A stretch of 64,000 nt of DNA from an uncultured Chitinophaga sp. Its GTDB lineage: Bacteria > Bacteroidota > Bacteroidia > Chitinophagales > LD1. A model generated the notes under the pieces. The model made no database searches, was not told the origin of the DNA, and saw only the letters and a list, made by a program, of their open reading frames with translations. Both the position numbers and the translations under genes were made by a program. The stretch covers positions 114,216 through 178,215 of the forward strand of contig CAZWAD010000001.1 of NCBI GenBank assembly GCA_964631835.1. The letters are read 5' to 3'. This document shows positions 2,662-57,006 of this stretch, in pieces (within the stretch, counting starts at the first letter, position 1; the number at the start of each line of letters is the position of its first letter).

Positions 2662-5496
2662 TTAGTTCGCTTCAGCTTTCGTTTTCTTTCCGAAGTTGTT
2701 GAAGTCGAAAGTCCATGCCAAATAATACATCGCTCCGATTTTAGGCGAACCAACCGCTTCGATATGCCAGTTATTATAAATATTTGAACCACCGAGGCGA
2801 ACAGTGGAATAAGCCTTCTCAATTTCATAATAAAGCTGTAGATCAAGGACATGGAAACTCGGAACTGTTCCATCAGCAAACGGGCTTTGCCATTCATAGT
2901 CTGTAACCCACTTAAAGTTAGCGCTAAAACCAAGTCCTTTCCATACCCGGTTACCGTTTACGCCTATATTTATTTTATGGCGGGGAGTATTGAAGCCGGA
3001 AAGAATAGTTGTTCCTGTGTTTTTTAAATTGCTGTCATCCAAATCGGAGTAGGTGTAATTTACATAAGGCGTAATTCCTCTTCCCACATAATATGCAACA
3101 CTAACCGCTACGCCCCAGGAAGGAGTTGTTCCTTCACCATTTACCCAGGTTTGGTAAGGTGTATAATAGCCGGAAAGTATATTGGTAACTCCTGATTCCT
3201 CACCGGCAATGCCAACATCGGTAGTATCGTTATACGGATGTGCTACGCGGGTAAAACCGATAAATCGTTTGTAAATGCTGTAGTATGCAGTCAGGTCAAC
3301 AAATACTTTGTTGTTGAAATCACCCCTATAACCGATTTCAAATGAAGTTACCCGTTCCGGTTGAATCGGCTTCAATGTAGTTGGAACCAAAACCGCTGCT
3401 GCCGCGTCTGCTTTGCTTCCTCCTTGTTCATTCAAAGCTAAAGTGTCTTCGGCATCGCGTATAGACTCAAGCGTATAAAGATTTTCCCATCCATTGAGGT
3501 TGCCTACCAGTTTGATTCTTCCAATGTCAAGATACAGATACTGGTCTTGCAAAGTAGGAGTTCTGAATGCTGCCGTAGCTGATGCGCGGAAAGTATGGTC
3601 GCTTTTTTTCGCTTTGTAAGTATAAACGAGCGAGCCTCTTGGCGAAACCTGCGCTTTAAAGTTCGAGTTTTTATCTACGCGGATTGAACCAATAATTTTA
3701 AAGTTGTCATTAAACAATCTCTTGGTCGCCTGCAAATACGCACCCACTTCATGGACTCGAATCTTTACATTAGCAGTATCTTCAAAGATTGTTCCGCGGG
3801 AGTTAGGCATATAGATACGGTACGATACACCGGTGATTATTTCCAGCCACTTTACAAAGTCCCAGTTATACTGCCCTTCAACATGCCACAACATGGAGCG
3901 GTCGTAGAACTTAGTTCCGTTAAGTGAATTCGCTTCTCCAATAAGATAGCTGAATGTATCTTTAAACTGCTGTGAGCCGCCTTTATACCAAAACTGCTCG
4001 GCATGAGCCCGGCCGGCTTTGCGGGCGGAATCAATCTGCCATTCACGAATGCAATCAGCACAGAAATCGGTAAGCGAGTCAATAGTTGCAAAATACTTGG
4101 AGCTGAACTCAGAAACATAATCAGGCACAGCAGCACGCGAAACATAAGCACCGGTCAACCCGATGTTGTAAGATTTTCCCGCATCTTCAATAGCTCCATA
4201 AGCGCGTATAAAAAAGTTCTTACCCTTCAATTCAATTTTTGGCTGGTGGAAATTAAATTCCTTGATTTGGTAACGGGCAGTAGCCTGGTAAACAGCAGTT
4301 CCGAATCCGTATTTGTAAGCTGCCTGTAATTCCAAATCGGGAGTAAAGCGGTAATGCAGGCCAACCGAAAACTTCAAGCTCTTGGCATTGTAATCAGCCA
4401 ATTCTTTTTCCATATAGCCGGGAGCTTTCACTTTCAAAAAGCCATTGGATGCCGCAGTATCAAAAATACTTGCCTGGGGATTGAAGTCGAGCCAGTTGTT
4501 TAGTTTTTCGTACCGGTCGTGGTCTTCCTGAGTAACCGGGCAAGTGGGGCAGTAAGGCTCCAATCTTTTTTTGCGGATTGAAGCATTGAGGTTTACATCC
4601 GCTTCAATGGCGCCATACAGGTTCAGCGAATCGTCATCCGCTACCCAATCGCTCATTTGCATGTACTCACCGGTAAACTTTATGGCAAACTTTTCTTTCT
4701 TTCCGAATGCCTGTGCGTAACGCAGCTGCGCATTCAGGTAAGGACCGGGAACCGTAGTTCCTCCGCCTTTTAACTGAACAGCAAGCCCCTGAAAATCGTA
4801 CGGGCTTTTGCTTCGCATGGTTATAACTCCCTGCATGGCGTTAGCTCCGTAAAGCGATGATGATGCTCCCGAGATAATCTCCACACTTTCCAAATCGAGG
4901 TCGTTTGCGCCTACCATGTTTCCAATCGGGAAGTTCAACCCCGGTGCTTCGTTATCTACCCCGTCAACAAACTGCTTGGTGCGCAGCGAACGGGTATCGC
5001 TGAAGCCGCGAAGGTTAATTACTTTAAAGCCCGAAGATGTGGTTACAATATCTACACCTTTAAAGTTTCCGATGCTCTGGTAGAAGTCACCGGAGGCGGC
5101 TGATTTGATTTCGCGCGAGGTCATTTTCTCGATTTGCACAGGAGCGGTCTTAATAGATTCGGCAACACGCGATGAAGTTACCACCACCTCGCCACCGGGA
5201 ATTTCGGCAGTTTCAAGAGTTACAGAAAAGTTGGTGTTGTTTCCAATGGTAATGTCGCGGGTTACATAGCCTACATACGAAACCGTAAGCCCCTTGGCAT
5301 CGGCTGGAACATCGAGTTTGAAATTGCCATCCGCATCGGTGGCGGTTCCTATCTTGGTTCCTTTTACAATAACCGTAGCGCCTACCATCGGCTCTTTGGT
5401 TTGTGAGTCAGTTATTTTTCCGGTAATGGTTTTAGTTTGGGCAAAGAGGAGGAATGAAGTACATACAAATGAAACAAACAGTAATAATTTCTTCAT
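2662..5496 (-). CDS. TonB-dependent receptor with carboxypeptidase-regulatory-like N-terminal domain
   Basis: Signal peptide, then ITGKITD..GATV.VKGT..GT.TD.DGNF (CarboxypepD_reg pattern). The 944-aa protein has a plug/barrel-sized body. Confidence 0.9.
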   Translation of the reverse strand: MKKLLLFVSFVCTSFLLFAQTKTITGKITDSQTKEPMVGATVIVKGTKIGTATDADGNFKLDVPADAKGLTVSYVGYVTRDITIGNNTNFSVTLETAEIPGGEVVVTSSRVAESIKTAPVQIEKMTSREIKSAASGDFYQSIGNFKGVDIVTTSSGFKVINLRGFSDTRSLRTKQFVDGVDNEAPGLNFPIGNMVGANDLDLESVEIISGASSSLYGANAMQGVITMRSKSPYDFQGLAVQLKGGGTTVPGPYLNAQLRYAQAFGKKEKFAIKFTGEYMQMSDWVADDDSLNLYGAIEADVNLNASIRKKRLEPYCPTCPVTQEDHDRYEKLNNWLDFNPQASIFDTAASNGFLKVKAPGYMEKELADYNAKSLKFSVGLHYRFTPDLELQAAYKYGFGTAVYQATARYQIKEFNFHQPKIELKGKNFFIRAYGAIEDAGKSYNIGLTGAYVSRAAVPDYVSEFSSKYFATIDSLTDFCADCIREWQIDSARKAGRAHAEQFWYKGGSQQFKDTFSYLIGEANSLNGTKFYDRSMLWHVEGQYNWDFVKWLEIITGVSYRIYMPNSRGTIFEDTANVKIRVHEVGAYLQATKRLFNDNFKIIGSIRVDKNSNFKAQVSPRGSLVYTYKAKKSDHTFRASATAAFRTPTLQDQYLYLDIGRIKLVGNLNGWENLYTLESIRDAEDTLALNEQGGSKADAAAAVLVPTTLKPIQPERVTSFEIGYRGDFNNKVFVDLTAYYSIYKRFIGFTRVAHPYNDTTDVGIAGEESGVTNILSGYYTPYQTWVNGEGTTPSWGVAVSVAYYVGRGITPYVNYTYSDLDDSNLKNTGTTILSGFNTPRHKINIGVNGNRVWKGLGFSANFKWVTDYEWQSPFADGTVPSFHVLDLQLYYEIEKAYSTVRLGGSNIYNNWHIEAVGSPKIGAMYYLAWTFDFNNFGKKTKAEAN

Positions 5497-19005: not shown

Positions 19006-20298
19006 CTAATCAATAATCATACACGCGCCCACCGTCACATTATTGGCTTCGTCAATGAGGATGAAGCTGCCGGTGTCGCGGTTTTTGGTGTAGGCATCGA
19101 AGCACAGCGGTGCAGTGGTGCGCAGGGTAAGGCGCCCCACATCGTTCATGCCAATGCCGGGGTTTTCGGTAATGCGGTGCAGGGTGTTTATGTCGAGCTT
19201 GTATTTAATTTCTTTAACCACCGCGCGCACATCTTTGGTGGTGTGCTTCAGGGCATATTTTCCGTTTAGCTGCAGGGGCTTGTCGCTCATCCAGCAAACC
19301 ATTGCCTCAATATCCTGGCTCTGCTTGGGTATGTTGCCTTCGCGCACTATCATATCTCCCCGCGAAATATCAATGTCGTCTTCCAGCTGCACCGTAACTG
19401 AGAGCGGGGCAAAGGCTTCTTCGAGTTCTTTGCCGTCCAGCTCAATTGATTTCACCACCGAGGTAAACCCCGACTGCATCACCGCCACCTTATCGCCTTT
19501 GCGAATTACTCCGCTGGCGATTCTCCCTGCATAGCCGCGGTAGTCGTGAAACTCATCGTTGTACGGACGAATAACATACTGCACCGGAAAGCGCATGTCA
19601 ATGTGGTTGATGTCGCTGGCAATGTGGATGTTTTCGAGCAGGTACATGAGCGTAACACCTTCGTACCATTTTGTTTTGTCGGACCGGTGCACCACGTTGT
19701 CGCCATTCAGTGCCGAGATAGGAATGAAGTGGATGTCTTTTGTTTTGAGGCGGGTGGCAAACTCGCGGTATTCATTCACAATCTTGTTGTAAATCTTTTC
19801 ATCATAATCCACCAAATCCATTTTGTTGATGCAAAGCGCAATGTGCGGAATACCCAGCAGCGATGCGATAATGCTGTGGCGCTTGGTCTGCTCTACAATT
19901 CCCTGCCGCGCATCCACAAGAATGATGGCAAGGTTGGCGGTGCTTGCACCGGTAACCATATTGCGCGTGTATTGAATGTGCCCGGGAGTATCGGCAATAA
20001 TGAATTTGCGCTTGGGAGTAGAGAAATAGCGATACGCTACATCAATGGTAATTCCCTGTTCGCGCTCGGCACGCAAGCCATCGGTAAGCAATGCAAGATT
20101 GACAATCGTTTCGCCCCTGCGTTCCGATGTTGCCTTAATGTTTTCGTATTGGTCTTCGAAAATAGATTTGCTGTCGTAAAGCAGTCTTCCTATCAAGGTG
20201 GATTTGCCGTCATCAACGCTACCGGCTGTGGTGAAACGCAACAATTCCATGTTTAAATAACTCTTCGAATCAAATTTTTCTTCTACTCCGTTGGTCAT
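19006..20298 (-). CDS. cysN: sulfate adenylyltransferase subunit 1 (GTPase)
   Basis: GTPase motifs GSVDDGKST, DTPGH and NKMD. 430 aa. Confidence 0.92.
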   Translation of the reverse strand: MTNGVEEKFDSKSYLNMELLRFTTAGSVDDGKSTLIGRLLYDSKSIFEDQYENIKATSERRGETIVNLALLTDGLRAEREQGITIDVAYRYFSTPKRKFIIADTPGHIQYTRNMVTGASTANLAIILVDARQGIVEQTKRHSIIASLLGIPHIALCINKMDLVDYDEKIYNKIVNEYREFATRLKTKDIHFIPISALNGDNVVHRSDKTKWYEGVTLMYLLENIHIASDINHIDMRFPVQYVIRPYNDEFHDYRGYAGRIASGVIRKGDKVAVMQSGFTSVVKSIELDGKELEEAFAPLSVTVQLEDDIDISRGDMIVREGNIPKQSQDIEAMVCWMSDKPLQLNGKYALKHTTKDVRAVVKEIKYKLDINTLHRITENPGIGMNDVGRLTLRTTAPLCFDAYTKNRDTGSFILIDEANNVTVGACMIID

Positions 20299-20325: not shown

Positions 20326-20357
20326 TAAAGTCCCCTTTAGGGGATTTAGGGGTTTTA
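20326..20357. repeat. TCCCCTTTAGGGGATTTAGGGG palindromic repeat in the cysD-cysN spacer
   Basis: TCCCCT/AGGGGA hairpin. Related to CTCCCTTTAGGGAGTTAGTGGGTTGGGG at 53631..53658. Confidence 0.75.
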
Positions 20358-21257
20358 AAAATATCCTTCTTTCTTTCTGTCCTCCATACTTGTTTCACTT
20401 CGCTTATCGTCAGCACGTCCACCACGCTCTGTTGTTCTTGATGAGGCAACCTCCTGAATAATATCATCGAGCGATGCCGCAGTAGAAACCGTAGCACCTG
20501 TTGAAGTAATATCACCAATCGTTCGAAAACGCACTACTTTTTCTTCGGCCTGCTCCGTTGGCTTCATGGGAATGTAAGGCGACTCTGCCAACAAAACTCC
20601 ATCGCGATTAAACACTCTTCGCTTATGCGAAAAATAAAGTGTAGGCATTTCAATTCCTTCCATGGCGAGGTATTGCCAAACATCCAACTCCGTCCAATTC
20701 GAAATAGGAAACACCCGGAAGTTTTCACCTACATGCATTTTACCATTGAATAAATTCCAAAGCTCCGGCCTTTGATTCTTCGGGTCCCACTGACCGAATT
20801 CATCGCGGTGCGAAAAGAAACGTTCTTTGGCGCGCGCTTTTTCTTCATCCCTTCTTGCGCCACCGATACATGCATCAAATTTGTGTTTCTCAATGGTGTC
20901 GAGCAATGTTGTTGTCTGCAAGCGAATACGAGATGCGCTGTAACCTTTTTCTTCGGCTACTCTTCCTTTGTCAATAGACTCCTGCACCAAACCGACAATC
21001 AGTTTTGCGTTGAGTTTCTTTACCAAGCTATCGCGGTAATCTAGTGTCTCCTGGAAGTTGTGACCTGTATCAATATGCACCAGCGGAAAAGGGATAGGAG
21101 AAGGATAGAATGCTTTCTTAGCAAGATAAGTTACAAGAATAGAATCCTTACCGCCACTAAACAGAATGGCGGGATTCTGAAACTGAGCCGCCACTTCGCG
21201 CAATACAAAAATGCTTTCGGCTTCAAGAGTCTTTAAATGATTAAGCGTATACGACAT
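20355..21257 (-). CDS. cysD: sulfate adenylyltransferase subunit 2
   Basis: PAPS-reductase-like fold with SGGKDS, and a C-terminal GERADDKRSE-like region. Confidence 0.92.
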   Translation of the reverse strand: MSYTLNHLKTLEAESIFVLREVAAQFQNPAILFSGGKDSILVTYLAKKAFYPSPIPFPLVHIDTGHNFQETLDYRDSLVKKLNAKLIVGLVQESIDKGRVAEEKGYSASRIRLQTTTLLDTIEKHKFDACIGGARRDEEKARAKERFFSHRDEFGQWDPKNQRPELWNLFNGKMHVGENFRVFPISNWTELDVWQYLAMEGIEMPTLYFSHKRRVFNRDGVLLAESPYIPMKPTEQAEEKVVRFRTIGDITSTGATVSTAASLDDIIQEVASSRTTERGGRADDKRSETSMEDRKKEGYF

Positions 21258-49186: not shown

Positions 49187-50575
49187 ATGAGATATACCAC
49201 ACATACTTTTCAAATGCTTGCCGATACACACACGCCCGTGGGTATTTACCTGAAGCTGCGCGATGTGTTTCATCAAACGCTGCTGCTGGAAAGCTCCGAT
49301 TATCATGCGGCAGAAAACAGTTTTTCGTTTATCTGCTGCCATGCCGTGGCATCTGTAAAAGTGCTGGAGGGTGCCGTGGAAATTGACGGATACAAAACCG
49401 GCAAGCAGACTGTTTCGTTTGAGCAGAAGCCGCTGTTTGAATCGTTTCAGCAGTTCAGCGATTCGTTTACCGAAACAAACGGCAAGGCCACTATTGCCAA
49501 CGGGCTGTTTGGTTATGTAAGCAGCGATGCGGTGCAGCACTTCGATAATTTTTCGTTCAGGAATGAAGACCGCGAAATTCCTTCGGTGTGGTTTACGTTT
49601 TACCGTTTTGTCATCGCGTTCAACCATTTTAAAGACGAGCTGGTTATTTACGAAAACGTGCCGGAGGGCGAAACTGGCGAAACGGAAAAAATAATTACGC
49701 TCATCCGCAATAAGAACATGGCGGTGTATCCGTTTGAAACCGCGGGCGAAGAAAAAACCAATGTGACCGACCCGGAATTTATTTCGATGATTGAACGCGC
49801 CATAGGGCATTGTTACCGTGGCGATGTTTTTCAGCTGGTGCTGTCGCGCAGGTTTATGCAAAAATTTACGGGCGATGATATGAATGTGTATCGCACGCTG
49901 CGCTCGATAAATCCTTCGCCCTACCTGTTTTATTTCGATTACGGCAACTTCCGGATTTTTGGTTCTTCGCCCGAAGCGCAGCTGGTGGTGAAGGGCAACA
50001 AAGCGAAAATCAATCCCATTGCAGGAACTTTTAAGCGCACCGGTGATGATGAGCAGGATAAAATGCTGGCGGAAAAACTGGCGAAGGATGAAAAAGAAAA
50101 TGCCGAGCATGTGATGCTGGTGGATTTGGCGCGCAACGATTTATCGAAGCATTGCAGCGCGGTGGAGGTGAAGCATTACAAGCAGATTCATTTTTACTCG
50201 CACGTGATTCATTTGGTGAGCGAAGTGATGGGAACGCTCGATGGCAAACACAATGCTTTGCAGTTACTGGCAGATTCGTTTCCTGCGGGCACACTTTCGG
50301 GTGCGCCCAAGCACGAAGCGATTGAGCTGATTCGCAAATACGAAAATATGCTGCGCGGATTTTATGGCGGGTGTATCGGCTTTATCGGTTTCAATGGCGA
50401 TATCAATACTGCTATTACCATCCGCTCGTTTTTGAGCAAGAACAACACGCTGCATTACCAGGCGGGCGCGGGAGTGGTGGCGGCATCGAATCCGCAAAGC
50501 GAGCTGGAGGAAGTTCACAACAAGCTGCGCGCCTTACGCACAGCCATTGAGCAGGCAAAACAAATGAGTGTATGA
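49187..50575 (+). CDS. trpE: anthranilate synthase component I
   Basis: LLESS, SPE..L, GAPK and a chorismate-binding C-half. Confidence 0.95.
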   Translation: MRYTTHTFQMLADTHTPVGIYLKLRDVFHQTLLLESSDYHAAENSFSFICCHAVASVKVLEGAVEIDGYKTGKQTVSFEQKPLFESFQQFSDSFTETNGKATIANGLFGYVSSDAVQHFDNFSFRNEDREIPSVWFTFYRFVIAFNHFKDELVIYENVPEGETGETEKIITLIRNKNMAVYPFETAGEEKTNVTDPEFISMIERAIGHCYRGDVFQLVLSRRFMQKFTGDDMNVYRTLRSINPSPYLFYFDYGNFRIFGSSPEAQLVVKGNKAKINPIAGTFKRTGDDEQDKMLAEKLAKDEKENAEHVMLVDLARNDLSKHCSAVEVKHYKQIHFYSHVIHLVSEVMGTLDGKHNALQLLADSFPAGTLSGAPKHEAIELIRKYENMLRGFYGGCIGFIGFNGDINTAITIRSFLSKNNTLHYQAGAGVVAASNPQSELEEVHNKLRALRTAIEQAKQMSV

Positions 50576-52129: not shown

Positions 52130-52917
52130 ATTACTTAGATGAGATAATCGCTCATAAACGGAAAGAGCTAGAAGTAAGAAAGCTACTTCGTACGGTTAGT
52201 CAGTTGGAGAATGATGTTTTATTTAAACGGGCAACTACTTCGCTGAAAGATATCCTCAGTCAAAAAAATAATAGTGGCATCATCGCAGAATTTAAACGCG
52301 CATCTCCGAGTAAGGGGTTTATAAACAAGTATGCAGAAGTAAAAAAAACAACTACCGGTTATATTAAGGCAGGTGCATCCGCTCTGTCTGTTCTTACGGA
52401 TGAAAAATATTTTGGAGGCACTGCAAAAGATTTAACCGAAGCGCGACAAGTAAATGCCTGCCCTATCCTCCGAAAAGACTTTACCGTTGACGAATACCAA
52501 ATCATTGAAGCAAAATCTATCGGTGCGGATGTTATTCTTTTGATAGCCGCGGTGTTGAGCAAAAAAGAAATCAAATCACTTACTGATGTTGCTGTGTCTT
52601 TGGGCTTAGAAGTGTTATTGGAAATTCACGAAGCAGAGGAATTGGACAAAGCCGATGTATCACAACACCTTATCGGCATCAACAACCGCAACCTGAAAAC
52701 CTTTGAAGTAAATCTGGAGCACAGTATTCAATTGGCGGAGCAACTTCCCAAAGGCGTTGTAAAAATTGCCGAGAGTGGAATAAGTCAGCCCGAAAATATT
52801 TTGCTGCTGAAGCAACATGGTTTCAATGGTTTTTTGATTGGAGGGAATTTTATGAAAGAAGCGCAACCCGAAATTGCTTGCAAAAAATTTATTGATAGTC
52901 TTTCTGTCTTGGTATGA
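52126..52917 (+). CDS. trpC: indole-3-glycerol phosphate synthase
   Basis: IAEFKRASPSKG, LRKDF and GINNRNL motifs. Overlaps trpD by 4 bp. Confidence 0.95.
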   Translation: MNYLDEIIAHKRKELEVRKLLRTVSQLENDVLFKRATTSLKDILSQKNNSGIIAEFKRASPSKGFINKYAEVKKTTTGYIKAGASALSVLTDEKYFGGTAKDLTEARQVNACPILRKDFTVDEYQIIEAKSIGADVILLIAAVLSKKEIKSLTDVAVSLGLEVLLEIHEAEELDKADVSQHLIGINNRNLKTFEVNLEHSIQLAEQLPKGVVKIAESGISQPENILLLKQHGFNGFLIGGNFMKEAQPEIACKKFIDSLSVLV

Positions 52918-53537
52918 AAACAAAAATCTGCGGCTTAAGGGAAAAACAGAATATTGCGGATTTAGCGAAGCTAAATCCGCAGTGGATGGGCTTCATCTTT
53001 GCTCCAGCTTCTCCGCGCTATTTCAATTCGGCAAAAGAACCCGCAGATTTAAGATCAATTCCCTCTTCCATTAACAAAGTCGGAGTGTTCGTGAACGAAA
53101 CATCAGAGAAGGTGAAAGAAACAATTCAGCAACACAACTTAAACGCCATTCAACTCCACGGCAACGAAACTCCCGAATACTGTGCATCGCTTCAATCACC
53201 CGGCATTGAAATCATCAAAGCATTCAGCGTGGATGATGACTTTGATTTCAGCATCACCGAATCCTATTCTCCTTTCGTAGATTATTTCCTATTCGATACC
53301 AAAGGCAAACAAGCAGGCGGCAACGGAATCGCCTTCAACTGGAATATCCTAAACGGCAAACGTTTTGCGAAACCGTTTTTATTGAGCGGAGGCATTTCAC
53401 CCGAACATGCAGAGGCAATAAAGCAATTCACTCATCCCGATTGCATCGGCATCGACATCAATAGCCGCTTCGAAATTTCTCCCGGCCTGAAAGATGTTGC
53501 GGCTATTCGTTTATTCTTACAACAAATTCAGTCATGA
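52914..53537 (+). CDS. trpF: phosphoribosylanthranilate isomerase
   Basis: KICG, QLHG.E and LSGG motifs. Overlaps trpC by 4 bp. Confidence 0.93.
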   Translation: MKTKICGLREKQNIADLAKLNPQWMGFIFAPASPRYFNSAKEPADLRSIPSSINKVGVFVNETSEKVKETIQQHNLNAIQLHGNETPEYCASLQSPGIEIIKAFSVDDDFDFSITESYSPFVDYFLFDTKGKQAGGNGIAFNWNILNGKRFAKPFLLSGGISPEHAEAIKQFTHPDCIGIDINSRFEISPGLKDVAAIRLFLQQIQS

Positions 53538-53548
53538 GTTACACCAAA

Positions 53549-53671
53549 GCATTCATTGCCGCGCAGACCCCTGCCCCTAAAGGGGTAAGGCAACGCAGAA
53601 AAAACATAGCTTGTATTTTGCGTAGCGGTTCTCCCTTTAGGGAGTTAGTGGGTTGGGGGTCTATTCTAAAC
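53549..53671. repeat. palindromic repeat element inserted between trpF and trpB, flanked by 26-bp direct repeats (53523..53548 and 53672..53697)
   Basis: The direct repeats are CAAATTCAGTCATGAGTTACACCAAA and CAAATTCAACCATGAGTTACACCAAA. The insert has AGACCCC...GGGGTCT ends and internal CCCCTAAAGGGG and CTCCCTTTAGGGAG hairpins. Confidence 0.85.
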
Positions 53672-53682
53672 CAAATTCAACC

Positions 53683-54858
53683 ATGAGTTACACCAAAACC
53701 AAAAACGGCTTTTACGGAGAATTTGGCGGAGCCTTCATCCCCGAAATGCTCCACGCCAATGTCGAAGAGCTGCAGCAGAATTACGAGCGCATTATCGAAC
53801 AACCTGATTTCAAAAAAGAAATGGAGCAACTTCTGCGCGATTATGTGGGCCGTCCTACTCCGCTCTTTTTTGCTGAACGCCTTTCGCAGCATTACGGCAC
53901 CAACATTTATTTAAAGCGCGAAGATCTTTGCCACACGGGAGCGCATAAAATCAATAACACCATCGGGCAGATTCTGCTGGCGCAGCGCCTCGGCAAAAAA
54001 CGAATCATTGCCGAAACCGGTGCAGGGCAACACGGAGTGGCTACCGCCACCGTCTGCGCCCTCAAAGGTTTGGAGTGCATTGTTTACATGGGGCAGAAAG
54101 ACACCGAGCGCCAGGCGCCCAATGTGGCGCGTATGAAAATGCTGGGTGCCAAAGTGGTGCCCGTTACCAGCGGTAACATGACCCTCAAAGATGCCACCAA
54201 CGAAGCCATCCGCGACTGGATCAACCATCCCGATGAAACACACTACATCATCGGCTCGGTGGTCGGTCCTCATCCTTATCCCGAAATGGTGGCGCGCTTT
54301 CAATCTGTCATCAGTGCCGAAATGCAAACACAGCTGCACGAAAAAACCAACCGCAATCACCCCGACTATGTGCTGGCATGTGTGGGCGGAGGCAGCAATG
54401 CAGCAGGCGCTTTCTATCATTTTCTCGATGACGAAAAAGTAAAACTCATTGCCGTAGAAGCCGCGGGCAAAGGTCTTGAGAGTGGTCACTCAGCCGCTAC
54501 TACTTACCTCGGCAAAAAAGGAATTATTCACGGCAGCATGACCCTGCTCATGCAAACCGCTGACGGACAAATCGAAGAACCCTATTCGCTTTCTGCGGGG
54601 CTCGATTACCCCGGCATTGGTCCGCTGCATGCGCATTTGTTCCAAAGCGGGCGCGCGCAGTTTAAGTATGTAACCGATGACAAAGCTTTGCAAGCCGCCT
54701 TCTTCCTCGCCAAAAACGAAGGCATTATCTGCGCCCTCGAAACCGCTCATGCACTGGCCGCTTTAGAGCAAGTCAATTTCCGCAAAACCAATGTGGTGGT
54801 CATCTGCCTCTCGGGCCGTGGCGACAAAGATTTAGAAGCGTACATGAAGCATTTGTAG
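53683..54858 (+). CDS. trpB: tryptophan synthase beta chain
   Basis: Start moved to [16 protein letters not shown] at 53683. [12 protein letters not shown] lysine and GGGSNA motifs. Confidence 0.96.
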
Positions 54859-54920
54859 AAAAAGAATTGGTGCCTGTCCCGAACTTGTTTCGGGAGCGCG
54901 TCCCGCACAAAGCAGCGGGT

Positions 54921-55060
54921 CGGGCTTTACGCTACAATCTTTTTTGCTGCTGCATTTTGTCCCCCTCTGCATAGCCTGTGTTTAGCTGAGGGGGTGCCCG
55001 TTTCGGGCGGGGGAGGTTTTTTCATCCGCAGCAAAAAAGGATTTCCGCTTCAATCCCTCG
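54921..55060. repeat. composite palindromic element downstream of trpB
   Basis: The imperfect arms share a perfect core, TTTTTTGCTGC (54940..54950) against GCAGCAAAAAA (55028..55038). Inner hairpins are CCCCCTC...GAGGGGG and GCCCG-TTT-CGGGC. Confidence 0.7.
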
Positions 55061-55107
55061 CGCAAACAGCCGCCTTTCACTCACAAGTTTGCCCTTGCGA
55101 GGTCGGC

Positions 55108-55136
55108 TCTGCGACCGAAGCAAACTTCCACTTTGT
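55108..55136 (+). repeat. solo copy of the left-end sequence of the GIY-YIG cassette
   Basis: TCTGCGACCGAAGCAAACTTCCACTTTGT matches 17657..17685 at 28 of 29 positions. Confidence 0.85.
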
Positions 55137-55195
55137 ATTTTTGTATTCGCTCCATCGGAGCAATCTGTTTGTAGAAAATACATAATTGCCCCTCC

Positions 55196-55764
55196 GCGCA
55201 CCGTAGGTGCCGCCTTATTTCCCTCTTCAAAACGCCTTCGTTATTTTCACGCGTAAATTATTCACCATGCCAAACACATATACTCAACTCTACATTCAAA
55301 TTGTATTTGCTGTGCAAGGCAGACAAAACCTAATTCCCAAACAACACAAAGAAGAACTGCATAGATACATTACCGGTATAGTTCAGAAACGAAATCATAA
55401 AATGATTGCCATAAATTCAATGCCTGACCACGCGCATATTTTTGTCGGATTAAAACCCACGCAATCCATTTCAGATTTAGTGCGCGACATCAAAACCAAT
55501 TCTTCTTCATTTATTACAGAGAAAAAATTTGTACGCGGTAAATTTAATTGGCAGGAAGGTTTCGGAGCATTCTCTTATTCGCATTCGCAAATTGATGCCG
55601 TTGTCAAATACATACTAAATCAGGAAGAACATCATTGCAACAAAACTTTTCGTGAGGAATACATCGGCTTCCTCAAAAAATTTGAGGTTGAATACGATGG
55701 GAAATACTTGTTTGACTGGATTGGGTGATTCTGTCAAATGCAACAGGCGGCACCTACGGTGCGC
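55196..55764 (+). mobile_element. IS200/RAYT-like unit: Y1 transposase gene bracketed by a perfect 20-bp inverted repeat
   Basis: GCGCACCGTAGGTGCCGCCT (55196..55215) is the exact reverse complement of AGGCGGCACCTACGGTGCGC (55745..55764). Confidence 0.85.
55267..55728 (+). CDS. IS200-like / REP-associated tyrosine (Y1, HUH) transposase
   Basis: Start moved to MPNTYTQLYIQIVF at 55267. HUH motif PDHAHIFVG and Tyr motif YILNQEEHH. Confidence 0.85.
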   Translation: MPNTYTQLYIQIVFAVQGRQNLIPKQHKEELHRYITGIVQKRNHKMIAINSMPDHAHIFVGLKPTQSISDLVRDIKTNSSSFITEKKFVRGKFNWQEGFGAFSYSHSQIDAVVKYILNQEEHHCNKTFREEYIGFLKKFEVEYDGKYLFDWIG

Positions 55765-55923
55765 CCCCAAAACGCTTCTTTATCTATACTGCAAACAGAA
55801 AACTCCTAACGGAGTAAGATAAAAACTGGTTGAGCATGGCCAGGCTAATCGCGTAGTGCGCTTTTTTTTGTTTAGCGTAACGAAATAAATTTTAGCCAAT
55901 TTCTTCCCGGCCTTGATCTTTTG

Positions 55924-55949
55924 GTTCTTTTGCATCAAGGCAAAAGAAC
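55924..55949. repeat. hairpin repeat, CTTTTGGTTCYTTT family (copy 1)
   Basis: GTTCTTTTGC-ATCAAG-GCAAAAGAAC, a perfect 10-bp stem. Confidence 0.85.
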
Positions 55950-56039
55950 AAACGCTATTCAACAACCACCCTTCCCAACAAAAGCACTGCCTTTCGAGCA
56001 GAGCCTGTCCGTTTCACGCGGAGCGATTGAAATGCTCAT

Positions 56040-56082
56040 GGTTCCATTATGTTTAAAAATGAGCATGAGCATTCAATGTGTC
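56040..56082. repeat. hairpin repeat, AATGCYCATGAT family (copy 3)
   Basis: AATGCTCATG (56040..56049) is the reverse complement of CATGAGCATT (56073..56082). Confidence 0.8.
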
Positions 56083-56126
56083 CTTTTAAAATCTAACGAG
56101 TTCACATTAAACGTACGATTCTTTTG

Positions 56127-56153
56127 GTTCCTTTTCTTCTAAAGAAAAGGAAC
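56127..56153. repeat. hairpin repeat, CTTTTGGTTCYTTT family (copy 2)
   Basis: GTTCCTTTTCTT-CTA-AAGAAAAGGAAC, a perfect 12-bp stem. It shares the 5' flank GATYCTTTTGGTTC with copy 1. Confidence 0.85.
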
Positions 56154-56240
56154 AAGAAAAACACTTTCAATCAAAAACATCAATTCGGCTAAAGCCAACG
56201 GCAAAACAAAAATCCCTCTCCCGCGAGGTAAAGCCCATTT

Positions 56241-56470
56241 CTGCCGCCCCATATTTAACATCTGCCGCCCCATAATTCCCTTCCGCCTTGCCGTAACCAG
56301 TTTCTGCCTCGTCATAATTAACATCTTCCTCACCATAAAATGTTCCCGCCCTTCCATAATTGCTCTCCGCCCTCTCATATTCAATCTCCGCCTTCCCATA
56401 TCGGGTCTTCGCTTTCCCCTAATCTCCCTGCGCCTGTCCTTATCCTTTCCCCGCCTCTCCCTTTCCAAGT
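56241..56470. repeat. degenerate tandem repeat, about 11 units of 20-21 bp (consensus near CTSCGCCYYCCATAATTNNNT)
   Basis: Units were read by hand, for example CTGCCGCCCCATATTTAACAT, CTGCCGCCCCATAATTCCCTT, CTCCGCCCTCTCATATTCAAT and CTCCGCCTTCCCATATCGGGT. Confidence 0.8.
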
Positions 56471-56526
56471 TCCCACATCTTTAACTTCTCTGCCCTTTTC
56501 TCCACTTTGCCCCTCTCAAAAACGAA

Positions 56527-56739
56527 ATGAGCCGCATAGTCACCCTCTTTAAAACCAAACACGGCAACATCGTTTCGGTATATTCCGCACCCGGCTTTCC
56601 GAACCTGAACGATACACCGCGCTGGCTCAAAAATGCTTCATCGGGTGTATCAAGAGAAGATGAATGCCAACAAAAAATCGCATACACATATCGTAAATGG
56701 CAACACTCATTTCGATTATTCCAATTTAAACCGCGATAA
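56527..56739 (+). pseudogene. trpA: truncated tryptophan synthase alpha chain (only about the first 40 codons are TrpA-like)
   Basis: MSRIVTLFKTKHGNIVSVYSAPGFPNLNDTPRWLKNASSGV fits the TrpA N-terminal pattern (RI..LF..K..N.LS.Y.TAG.PNLNDT......SGV). The downstream sequence lacks the IE.G.PFSDP motif. The ORF stops after 70 codons. Confidence 0.7.
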
Positions 56740-57006
56740 AAAGCAAATGCTTAATTCCAAAATTCTCACCTTCCGCAGAAAGTGCAAACCCACGGGCATA
56801 TTGCTGGGCGACTGTATTAACGAAGCCGAACAACTGACTGCTGCCGCATTAGAAAAAGAAATGAAGGAGATGGAACGGAAGAAGAAAGATTTTCTGCGGA
56901 AATCAGATTAAAGCAGGCGCTTAATTTTCAATACCGCATCACTTTGGAAAAAGAACCACTTTCACCCCGAGCCCCCAAAGGGCAGGTGCATTTTCAGCGG
57001 GCAAAA

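Follow-up and report, generated by a model that had tools for sequence, protein, structure and literature searches.

Mycobacterial interspersed repetitive units (MIRUs; Supply et al. 1997) insert at start codons and carry an internal open reading frame (ORF) that is coupled at a spacing of -4. This design is thought to minimize the effect of the insertion on the downstream gene (PMC12548453; PMC3184786). Rickettsia palindromic elements (RPEs; Ogata et al. 2000) are found in frame within conserved protein genes (cited in PMC3184786). Here, we describe a palindromic repeat that separates trpF from trpB in an uncultured Chitinophaga sp. The DNA analyzed, referred to as the window, is a stretch of 64,000 nt (assembly GCA_964631835.1, contig CAZWAD010000001.1, positions 114,216 to 178,215, forward strand). 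The insertion is old, belongs to a repeat family found mostly in Bacteroidota, is conserved at the nucleotide level and is bridged by an ORF that, in both lineages that carry it, contains no stop and keeps its register. On balance, we favor the view that this ORF relays ribosomes from trpF to trpB across an old and constrained insertion.

The locus resembles a MIRU in several respects. A short repeat lies between co-transcribed genes, an ORF runs through the repeat in the direction of the operon, and the start and stop of this ORF overlap the stop and start of its neighbors at -4, both in the window and in a second genome (L132, see below). However, the ends of a MIRU ORF belong to the repeat, while those in the window are a duplicated host junction. 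In addition, the element in the window is a long palindrome from a Bacteroidota family, there is no tandem array at the trp locus, and most junction copies of the family lack a bridging ORF. Given the Bacteroidota host and the palindromic architecture, and with the likeness drawn from descriptions, we regard the relation as a functional analogy only. The relay principle would thus already be known from MIRUs, and this locus would be a variant reached by another route.

The trpF/trpB Junction

The trp genes in the window have the order trpEGDCFB, are all encoded on the plus strand and are spaced by -4 or +1 (trpE, 49187-50575, taken from the ORF list). The trpE/G, trpD/C and trpC/F junctions are ATGA overlaps, while trpG/D is TAG-G-ATG, with a gap of 1 nt. 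With four other junctions of these types, the operon appears to be built for coupling. The fifth junction differs. TrpF (207 aa, 52914..53537, plus strand, ORF list; homologs carry PF00697) ends with TGA at 53535-53537, while TrpB (391 aa, 53683..54858, plus strand, ORF list, starting MSYTK) begins with the ATG at 53683. The first-pass annotation had described an insertion of 149 bp at this site, and its observation is correct in every detail. The trpF stop lies within an ATGA (53534-53537), as claimed. The assigned start of trpB agrees with the gene models of relatives, which have a 391-aa PALP-domain gene with the same start codon. A 26-mer at 53523-53548 recurs at 53672-53697 with 24 of 26 positions in agreement and an offset of 149, and an ORF of 50 sense codons extends over 53534-53686, ending in the ATGA at 53683-53686.

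The closest public TrpF proteins are 77-89% identical to that of the window and originate from uncultured Bacteroidota. In nine of nine relative contigs (L001-L004, L130, L131 and three that are known from gene coordinates only), trpF and trpB overlap by -4 (ATGA) without any spacer. Alignment to the empty-site relatives leaves a clean 149-nt gap in the latter. With nine relatives showing the direct overlap, the 149 bp in the window are an insertion. This comparison with related junctions, which had been proposed as a check for empty-site alleles, also bears out the ancestral ATGA coupling of trpF and trpB that had been postulated.

The direct repeat is longer than first stated. It extends over 53509-53548 and 53659-53697, with 34 of 40 positions identical and one 1-nt gap, which is far beyond chance (z ~19 compared to shuffled flanks). 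The 149 bp thus consist of a palindromic element of ~110 nt (53549-53658) and a duplicated junction of 39-40 nt. The left junction copy (53509..53548, plus strand) comprises the 3' end of trpF, the ATGA and the first five trpB-type codons, matching the single-copy junction of the relatives. The right copy (53659..53697, plus strand) comprises the native upstream context of trpB, the ATGA and the first five trpB codons. According to the direct repeat and the empty-site alignment, both ATGA overlaps on the plus strand (53534..53537, between trpF stop and ORF start, and 53683..53686, between ORF stop and trpB start) were supplied by the duplicated host sequence, the element itself contributing neither.

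The 40-nt duplication may have arisen from widely staggered nicks, or the element may have inserted into a pre-existing small tandem duplication. To our knowledge, only a few insertion sequences, e.g., IS1634 and IS1549, have been reported to make long variable direct repeats. Among 126 sampled family copies, the window copy is the only one with a long flanking repeat, tandem arrays aside. A long target duplication was therefore rejected as a trait of the family.

The core of the inserted element (53549..53658), as delimited by the empty-site alignment, is absent from the relatives and homologous to 659-866 in L132 and to 3950-4056 in L028 (see below). Its left arm module, AGACCCC-TG-CCCCTAAAGGGG (53565..53585), is defined by the palindrome, the fold and the family consensus. 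It is followed by a variable center (53586..53630), which folds into its own imperfect stem (GCAACGCAGAAAA / TTTTGCGTAGC) and holds most of the differences from L132 and L028. The last 4 nt of the right arm module, CTCCCTTTAGGGAG-TTAGT-GGGTTGGGGGTCT (53631..53662; palindrome and fold), also belong to the beginning of the right repeat copy, which makes the boundary ambiguous. The imperfect palindrome that had been reported, with the ends AGACCCC (53565-53571) and GGGGTCT (53656-53662), is present. Its inner arms (53575-53584 and 53633-53642) are complementary at 10 of 10 positions, and the RNA fold of the insert stretch is stable (-50.3 kcal/mol, z = -2.9). No terminator-like or sigma-70 promoter-like site was found in the insert. 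The duplication leaves 27 nt between the trpF stop and the hairpin, and 20 nt between the hairpin and the trpB ATG. In E. coli, repetitive extragenic palindromic sequences (REPs) within ~15 nt of a stop codon stall ribosomes (PMC12306157).

A Second Lineage with the Same Insertion

A JGI metagenome contig (L132) carries the orthologous filled site, with trpF at 2-646, an ORF at 643-894 and trpB from 891, so that ATGA overlaps occur at both ends of the ORF (643-646 and 891-894). According to the alignment, the element, the junction and the flanking repeat are the same as in the window, and the right repeat copies share a 1-nt deletion (ATTCT-AAACC). The shared site, element, repeat and deletion point to one ancestral event. 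Both repeat copies of L132 read CAATC, while the window has CAGTC on the left and CAACC on the right, so that each of the latter is one substitution away from the ancestor. A recombination breakpoint at the junction as the cause of this difference found no support.

Compared to the window, L132 has 99 additional nt in its insert, or exactly 33 codons, which align as small internal palindromes of 36 and 63 nt. Its bridging ORF has 83 codons and is open. In both genomes, the frame of the ORF has no stop codon, while the other plus-strand frames have 3-8. The two lineages are clearly diverged, with TrpF being 84% identical and the fourfold sites of trpF 48.5% identical. In contrast, the element is identical at 96 of 110 positions (87.3%; binomial p ~1e-17 against the fourfold sites). 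The arms are identical over a 32-nt block, whereas the center and the encoded peptide diverge, and the right inner arm of L132 is split by the 63-nt insertion.

The Bridging ORF as a Ribosome Relay

The bridging ORF (53534..53686, plus strand, 50 codons) is the only stop-free plus-strand frame across the insert and is orthologous to the 83-codon ORF of L132. Since neither of the two diverged lineages has closed it, it probably hands ribosomes to trpB. Its translation, and the dependence of trpB on it, are predicted from the sequence. In an ancestor, a non-autonomous palindromic repeat of ~110 nt inserted once into the ATGA overlap of trpF and trpB, along with a duplication of ~40 nt of the junction. 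The left copy retains the trpF stop together with a start site of the native trpB type, and the right copy has kept the start of trpB along with its native upstream context. The following course of events is envisaged for translation. As the left copy corresponds to the start site native to trpB, ribosomes that terminate on trpF would reinitiate at the ATG at 53534, as they formerly did on the ancestral trpB. They would then translate the 50-codon frame, melting the hairpin of the element en route, and terminate at the TGA (53684-53686), which overlaps the trpB ATG, where a second reinitiation would follow. The ORF would act as a ribosome relay and not through its protein product, with selection keeping it stop-free and in register. 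The poor conservation of the peptide (65% identity over 31 aa between the window and L132) fits a relay better than a functional protein.

The openness of the ORF in the window had been put at a chance of roughly one in ten, and this estimate holds, as the bridging frame is open in 0.116 of 20,000 shuffles of the 123-nt core. The chance of the original window configuration is ~0.116 x 1/3. For L132, the neutral chances are 0.43 that 24 substitutions create no new stop, 0.28 that the extra 99 nt are open, and 1/3 that their length is a multiple of three. The rough neutral product is ~0.04, or ~0.013 if the 36-nt and 63-nt extras are separate events. Under shuffling, the L132 insert is open with a probability of 0.055.

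Several points weigh against a relay. Two bases of the ATG at 53534, T and G, belong to the trpF stop, and the remaining A is at a wobble position. At the other end, trpB codon 2 begins with the A that follows the trpB ATG. The ATGA overlaps are thus held by constraints on trpF and trpB, so that only frame and openness count as independent evidence. This independent signal is moderate (p ~0.01-0.04), comes from one replicate lineage and concerns a locus that was picked because its bridging ORF was open. It is the palindromic arms that are strongly conserved at the nucleotide level, a pattern that points to a constraint on structure or recognition and not on translation, or at any rate fits the former no less well. 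In L132, the left copy shows divergence in its first codons (MSYPK versus MTYTK), and constraint on them is not significant (p = 0.09). The empty-site relative L001 is nearer to the window (TrpF 89% identical) than is L132 (84%). Thus, either at least one loss of the insert has occurred or recombination has moved it, and it is dispensable. Loss would be easy through the 40-nt repeats, and no recombination breakpoint is evident. Finally, most junction copies of the family have no open frame and are retained nonetheless, including in operons for ribosomal proteins and ATP synthase, so that a bridging ORF is not generally required.

Some of these points are shared by the most serious alternative, namely that the insertion is real and old but a tolerated passenger, with the ORF open by chance and inheritance, and with trpB initiating independently because the duplication preserved its native upstream context. 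The openness by itself is compatible with chance under shuffling (p = 0.116 for the window, 0.055 for L132), the constraints on trpF and trpB account for both overlaps, 64 of the 126 family copies are closed in every frame, unbridged junction copies persist in essential operons, and the nearer relative L001 has no insert. A passenger does not, however, account well for a length difference of exactly 33 stop-free codons together with 24 substitutions that gave no stop (joint probability ~0.01-0.04), and the conservation of the element far above neutral sites argues that the locus is not drifting freely. We thus consider this alternative possible but not likely.

That same conservation is the basis for a second alternative, in which the nucleic acid element itself is constrained and the ORF is incidental. 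It might be an RNA hairpin that sets the relative stability or processing of trpF and trpB mRNA, or a DNA or RNA site to which a conserved factor binds. The identity of 87% compared to 48.5% at fourfold sites, the identical arms around a diverged center and peptide, the stable fold, and the occurrence of the module across orders, in a few other phyla and on viral contigs would all fit. On the other hand, a long stem is not what is conserved, since the right inner arm of L132 is split by 63 nt, the element has no Rfam match and no terminator-like site, and the three-fold register of the indels is left unexplained. We regard this explanation as rather unlikely when taken as the sole one, and it is not mutually exclusive with a relay.

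It is very unlikely that the 50-aa product is a functional small protein that was gained through the insertion. The ORF is called as a gene in two assemblies, and a full HMMER scan with the 50-aa sequence against 1.84 billion representatives returned these two as informative proteins, P0136 (an identical 50-aa gene product on the NCBI contig) and P0137 (the 83-aa product on L132). The orthologs are, however, only 65% identical over 31 residues and differ in length by 33 residues, and the ends of the peptide are the duplicated sequence of the TrpB N-terminus and the TrpF C-terminus. Beyond these two, HMMER gave two weak matches (P0138 and P0139; E ~2e-5), neither of which seems homologous, one being a repetitive protein and the other 31% identical over 30 residues. 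An assembly artifact, to which palindromes and short duplications are prone, is scarcely credible because the same architecture occurs in two independent assemblies, a 515-kb NCBI genome contig and the JGI metagenome contig, that are ~18% diverged in nucleotide sequence.

The Palindromic Family

The first-pass annotation had suggested that the inserted DNA may be a miniature element, and it is indeed a palindromic repeat with relatives elsewhere, mostly in Bacteroidota. The family has the architecture of inverted modules, (A/G)CCCC-N2-5-CCCCTAAAGGGG ... CCCCTTTAGGGG-N2-5-GGGG(T/C), with the module consensus (T-rich)-C4-6-AAN-CCCCTAAAGGGG-A. A scan with the pattern CCCTAAAGGG-N30-60-CCCTTTAGGG over one genome per species returned at least 120 loci, compared to ~17 estimated for a uniform base composition. 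The matches listed are nearly all from Bacteroidota, covering many orders, with a few from Thiotrichaceae, Clostridia and others. Conservation extends beyond the searched pattern. The module consists of a C-run, 2-5 nt and CCCCTAAAGGGG, and the palindrome reaches one base past the runs, as A...T or G...C. The retrieved DNA contains 291 modules, and module pairs have spacers of 24-62 nt.

One full-length homolog of the window element was found, in opposite orientation, in L028, a metagenome-assembled genome (MAG) of an uncultured member of the Bacteroidetes. A metagenome scan with the left arm AGACCCCTGCCCCTAAAGGGG gave five matches, none of them a full-length homolog, and a protein word search with concatenated element peptides, a poorly designed query, gave none. 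The 64-kb window holds one module pair and one solo module, and searches for a second copy of the element in it (50-mer with at most 3 mismatches; blastn-short) were negative. No Rfam family matches the element, the only match at 48-58 kb being Flavo-1 downstream of trpB (see below). No description of the module sequence, or of palindromic or in-frame repeats from Bacteroidota, was found in the searchable literature, coverage of which is incomplete.

Paired modules are also found on viruses. The pattern occurs on 32 viral or proviral contigs from IMG/VR (L133-L164), and the outer C-run/G-run architecture is complete in 29 of the 34 matches. The wide spread of the family may be due to transport by phages. 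Tandem arrays of paired modules with periods of ~115-140 nt occur in L009 (4592-4791), L093 (6907-7707), L096 and L048. A subfamily from Cytophagales (Larkinella and relatives) has the conserved center GGACGC...CCGGATGC (L017, L042, L051, L109, L112, L120 and L124), and its palindromic flanks are locus-specific, reaching 5-19 nt beyond the G-runs.

Some copies are located within genes (~7 of the 126 sampled). That of L028 lies in frame in a 1262-codon gene for an MMPL-family transporter, in a linker where eight homologs lack at least 23 residues. Six more copies are in frame in long ORFs, with the recurring frame ...PPSPLKGE...SPLGDLGV.... By Pfam, the affected genes code for urocanase (L086), MnmE (L035) and the HATPase_c domain of a sensor histidine kinase (L007), or the copy lies in a GH2/malectin linker (L014). 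In L050, only DUF4350, a domain of unknown function, was matched, and the host ORF of L033 has no Pfam match. This behavior recalls the RPEs, with which the window element and its family share the character of a palindromic repeat of ~100-150 bp, and the in-frame copies in the MMPL transporter, urocanase, MnmE, the histidine kinase and the GH2 enzyme likewise keep the frame of the host gene. The two differ in phylum and sequence family, and the likeness is drawn from descriptions. Moreover, the window copy is intercistronic.

A further comparison concerns REP, BIME and REPIN sequences. These are likewise short G+C-rich hairpin modules, single or as inverted pairs around a spacer, that occur mostly between co-directional genes and often near stop codons. 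REPs are defined by a GTAG or CGTC tetranucleotide tag at one end (PMC3733652), and the module consensus lacks such a tag. Unlike in REPIN/RAYT systems, the Y1_Tnp gene in the window is flanked by unrelated repeats and not by the module. The family also resembles MITEs (miniature inverted-repeat transposable elements) such as Correia/NEMIS, ERIC and YPAL, which are non-autonomous, ~100-150 bp in length, form a long RNA hairpin and lie within transcription units. Terminal inverted repeats around a non-coding core, as expected of a MITE, are present. The family differs in that there is no consistent short flanking duplication among the 126 copies, while the window copy has a repeat of 39-40 nt. 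It has no known parent insertion sequence, and transposase-bearing copies were not systematically sought.

The earlier interpretation, that the element tolerates or is selected for in-frame read-through, is partly supported, being right for the trpF/trpB locus but not general to the family. Selected read-through fits this locus, where the L132 insert is longer by 33 codons, still open and flanked by ATGA at both ends, but it fails as a family property. Tolerance of read-through agrees with the copies translated in frame within genes (L028 and six others), while 64 of the 126 copies have no stop-free frame whatever. It had further been proposed to check whether other copies sit at gene junctions and stay open; some do sit there, but usually without a bridging ORF.

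Copies That Fill Gene Junctions

About 20-25 of the 126 copies fill the entire gap between the stop codon of a long upstream ORF and the ATG of a long downstream ORF, as in TAA-ACCCC...GGGGT-ATG. Filled junctions confirmed by Pfam are those between ribosomal proteins (L14>L24 and L6>L18), between ATP synthase b and delta, and between NuoJ and NuoK. Copies that abut the starts of trpE-like and trpD-like genes were also confirmed by Pfam. Twelve of the filled gaps fold as a single hairpin, and in 10 of these the closing pair is at most 3 nt away from both the stop and the ATG. When the elements are removed in silico, 12 of 98 are found in co-directional gaps of at most 10 nt, compared to 0.2% of the non-coding positions of the same loci. 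As perfect inner arms were a condition for sampling, constrained copies may be favored in this figure. The junction-filling copies generally have neither a bridging ORF nor a long flanking repeat.

The atpG>scpB junction is filled in two Chitinophagales genomes (L072, 7435-7508; L102, 401-480). The arms are intact in both, while the centers are not alike in sequence and measure 36 and 42 nt, respectively, which suggests long persistence at one junction. The solo module of the window (20328-20354, minus strand; AACCCCTAAATCCCCTAAAGGGGACTT) directly follows the stop of a cysD-like gene with a PAPS_reduct domain (20355-21257), with the ATG of a cysN-like GTPase gene (19006-20298) following 29 nt later.

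Among the results of this analysis, the hairpin copies that fill junctions in housekeeping operons are the most novel lead. As a tentative reading, put forward as a whole, palindromes with the CCCCTAAAGGGG module may be a mobile family whose copies preferentially land or persist exactly where stop and start meet in operons. A hairpin of ~80-100 nt would set the stop and the ATG at 0-3 nt from the two sides of its closing pair, and the terminating ribosome would be handed over the base of the stem, leaving the insert untranslated. The relay ORF between trpF and trpB would then be a second solution to the same problem. Bacteroidota hardly use Shine-Dalgarno sequences, initiation largely proceeding without such pairing.

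Neighborhood of the trp Genes

There is no trpA-sized gene after trpB, neither in the window (54859-57000) nor in the MAG relative L004 (11785-15249), so that trpA must lie elsewhere in this lineage. In L130, a pair of nucleotidyltransferase and HepT-like genes (MNT/HEPN-type; 3096-3732) lies between trpC and trpF and represents another junction insertion in the same operon. The TrpF of L130 is 87% identical to that of the window, and its trpF is called 24 residues shorter.

A match to the Flavo-1 RNA (RF01705) on the minus strand (54914-55068; 57 bits, compared to a gathering score of 42) directly follows trpB and precedes an IS200-like transposase gene. The transposase gene (Y1_Tnp, IS200-like and RAYT-like, 55267-55728) is contained in a region (55196-55764) that is delimited by perfect 19-nt inverted repeats, GCGCACCGTAGGTGCCGCC (55196-55214) and GGCGGCACCTACGGTGCGC (55746-55764). 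GTAG occurs in these repeats, which have no relation to the trp element. A 21-nt tandem repeat (2.6 copies) is located at 56346-56400, downstream of the Y1_Tnp gene and within a C-rich sequence of low complexity.

Implications

The trpF/trpB locus would be a natural example, represented in two lineages, of a relay ORF that keeps coupling across an inserted repeat, outside the mycobacteria and by way of a duplicated host junction. The palindromic family, for which we found no description, occurs mostly in Bacteroidota and combines RPE-like behavior (in frame within genes) with a location at operon junctions. As initiation in Bacteroidota largely proceeds without Shine-Dalgarno pairing, these loci are test cases for reinitiation over structured spacers of 80-250 nt, and also for how selfish DNA minimizes its own cost. 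If the tentative reading of the junction-filling copies is true, junction hairpins would offer selfish DNA a new means of inhabiting tightly coupled operons.

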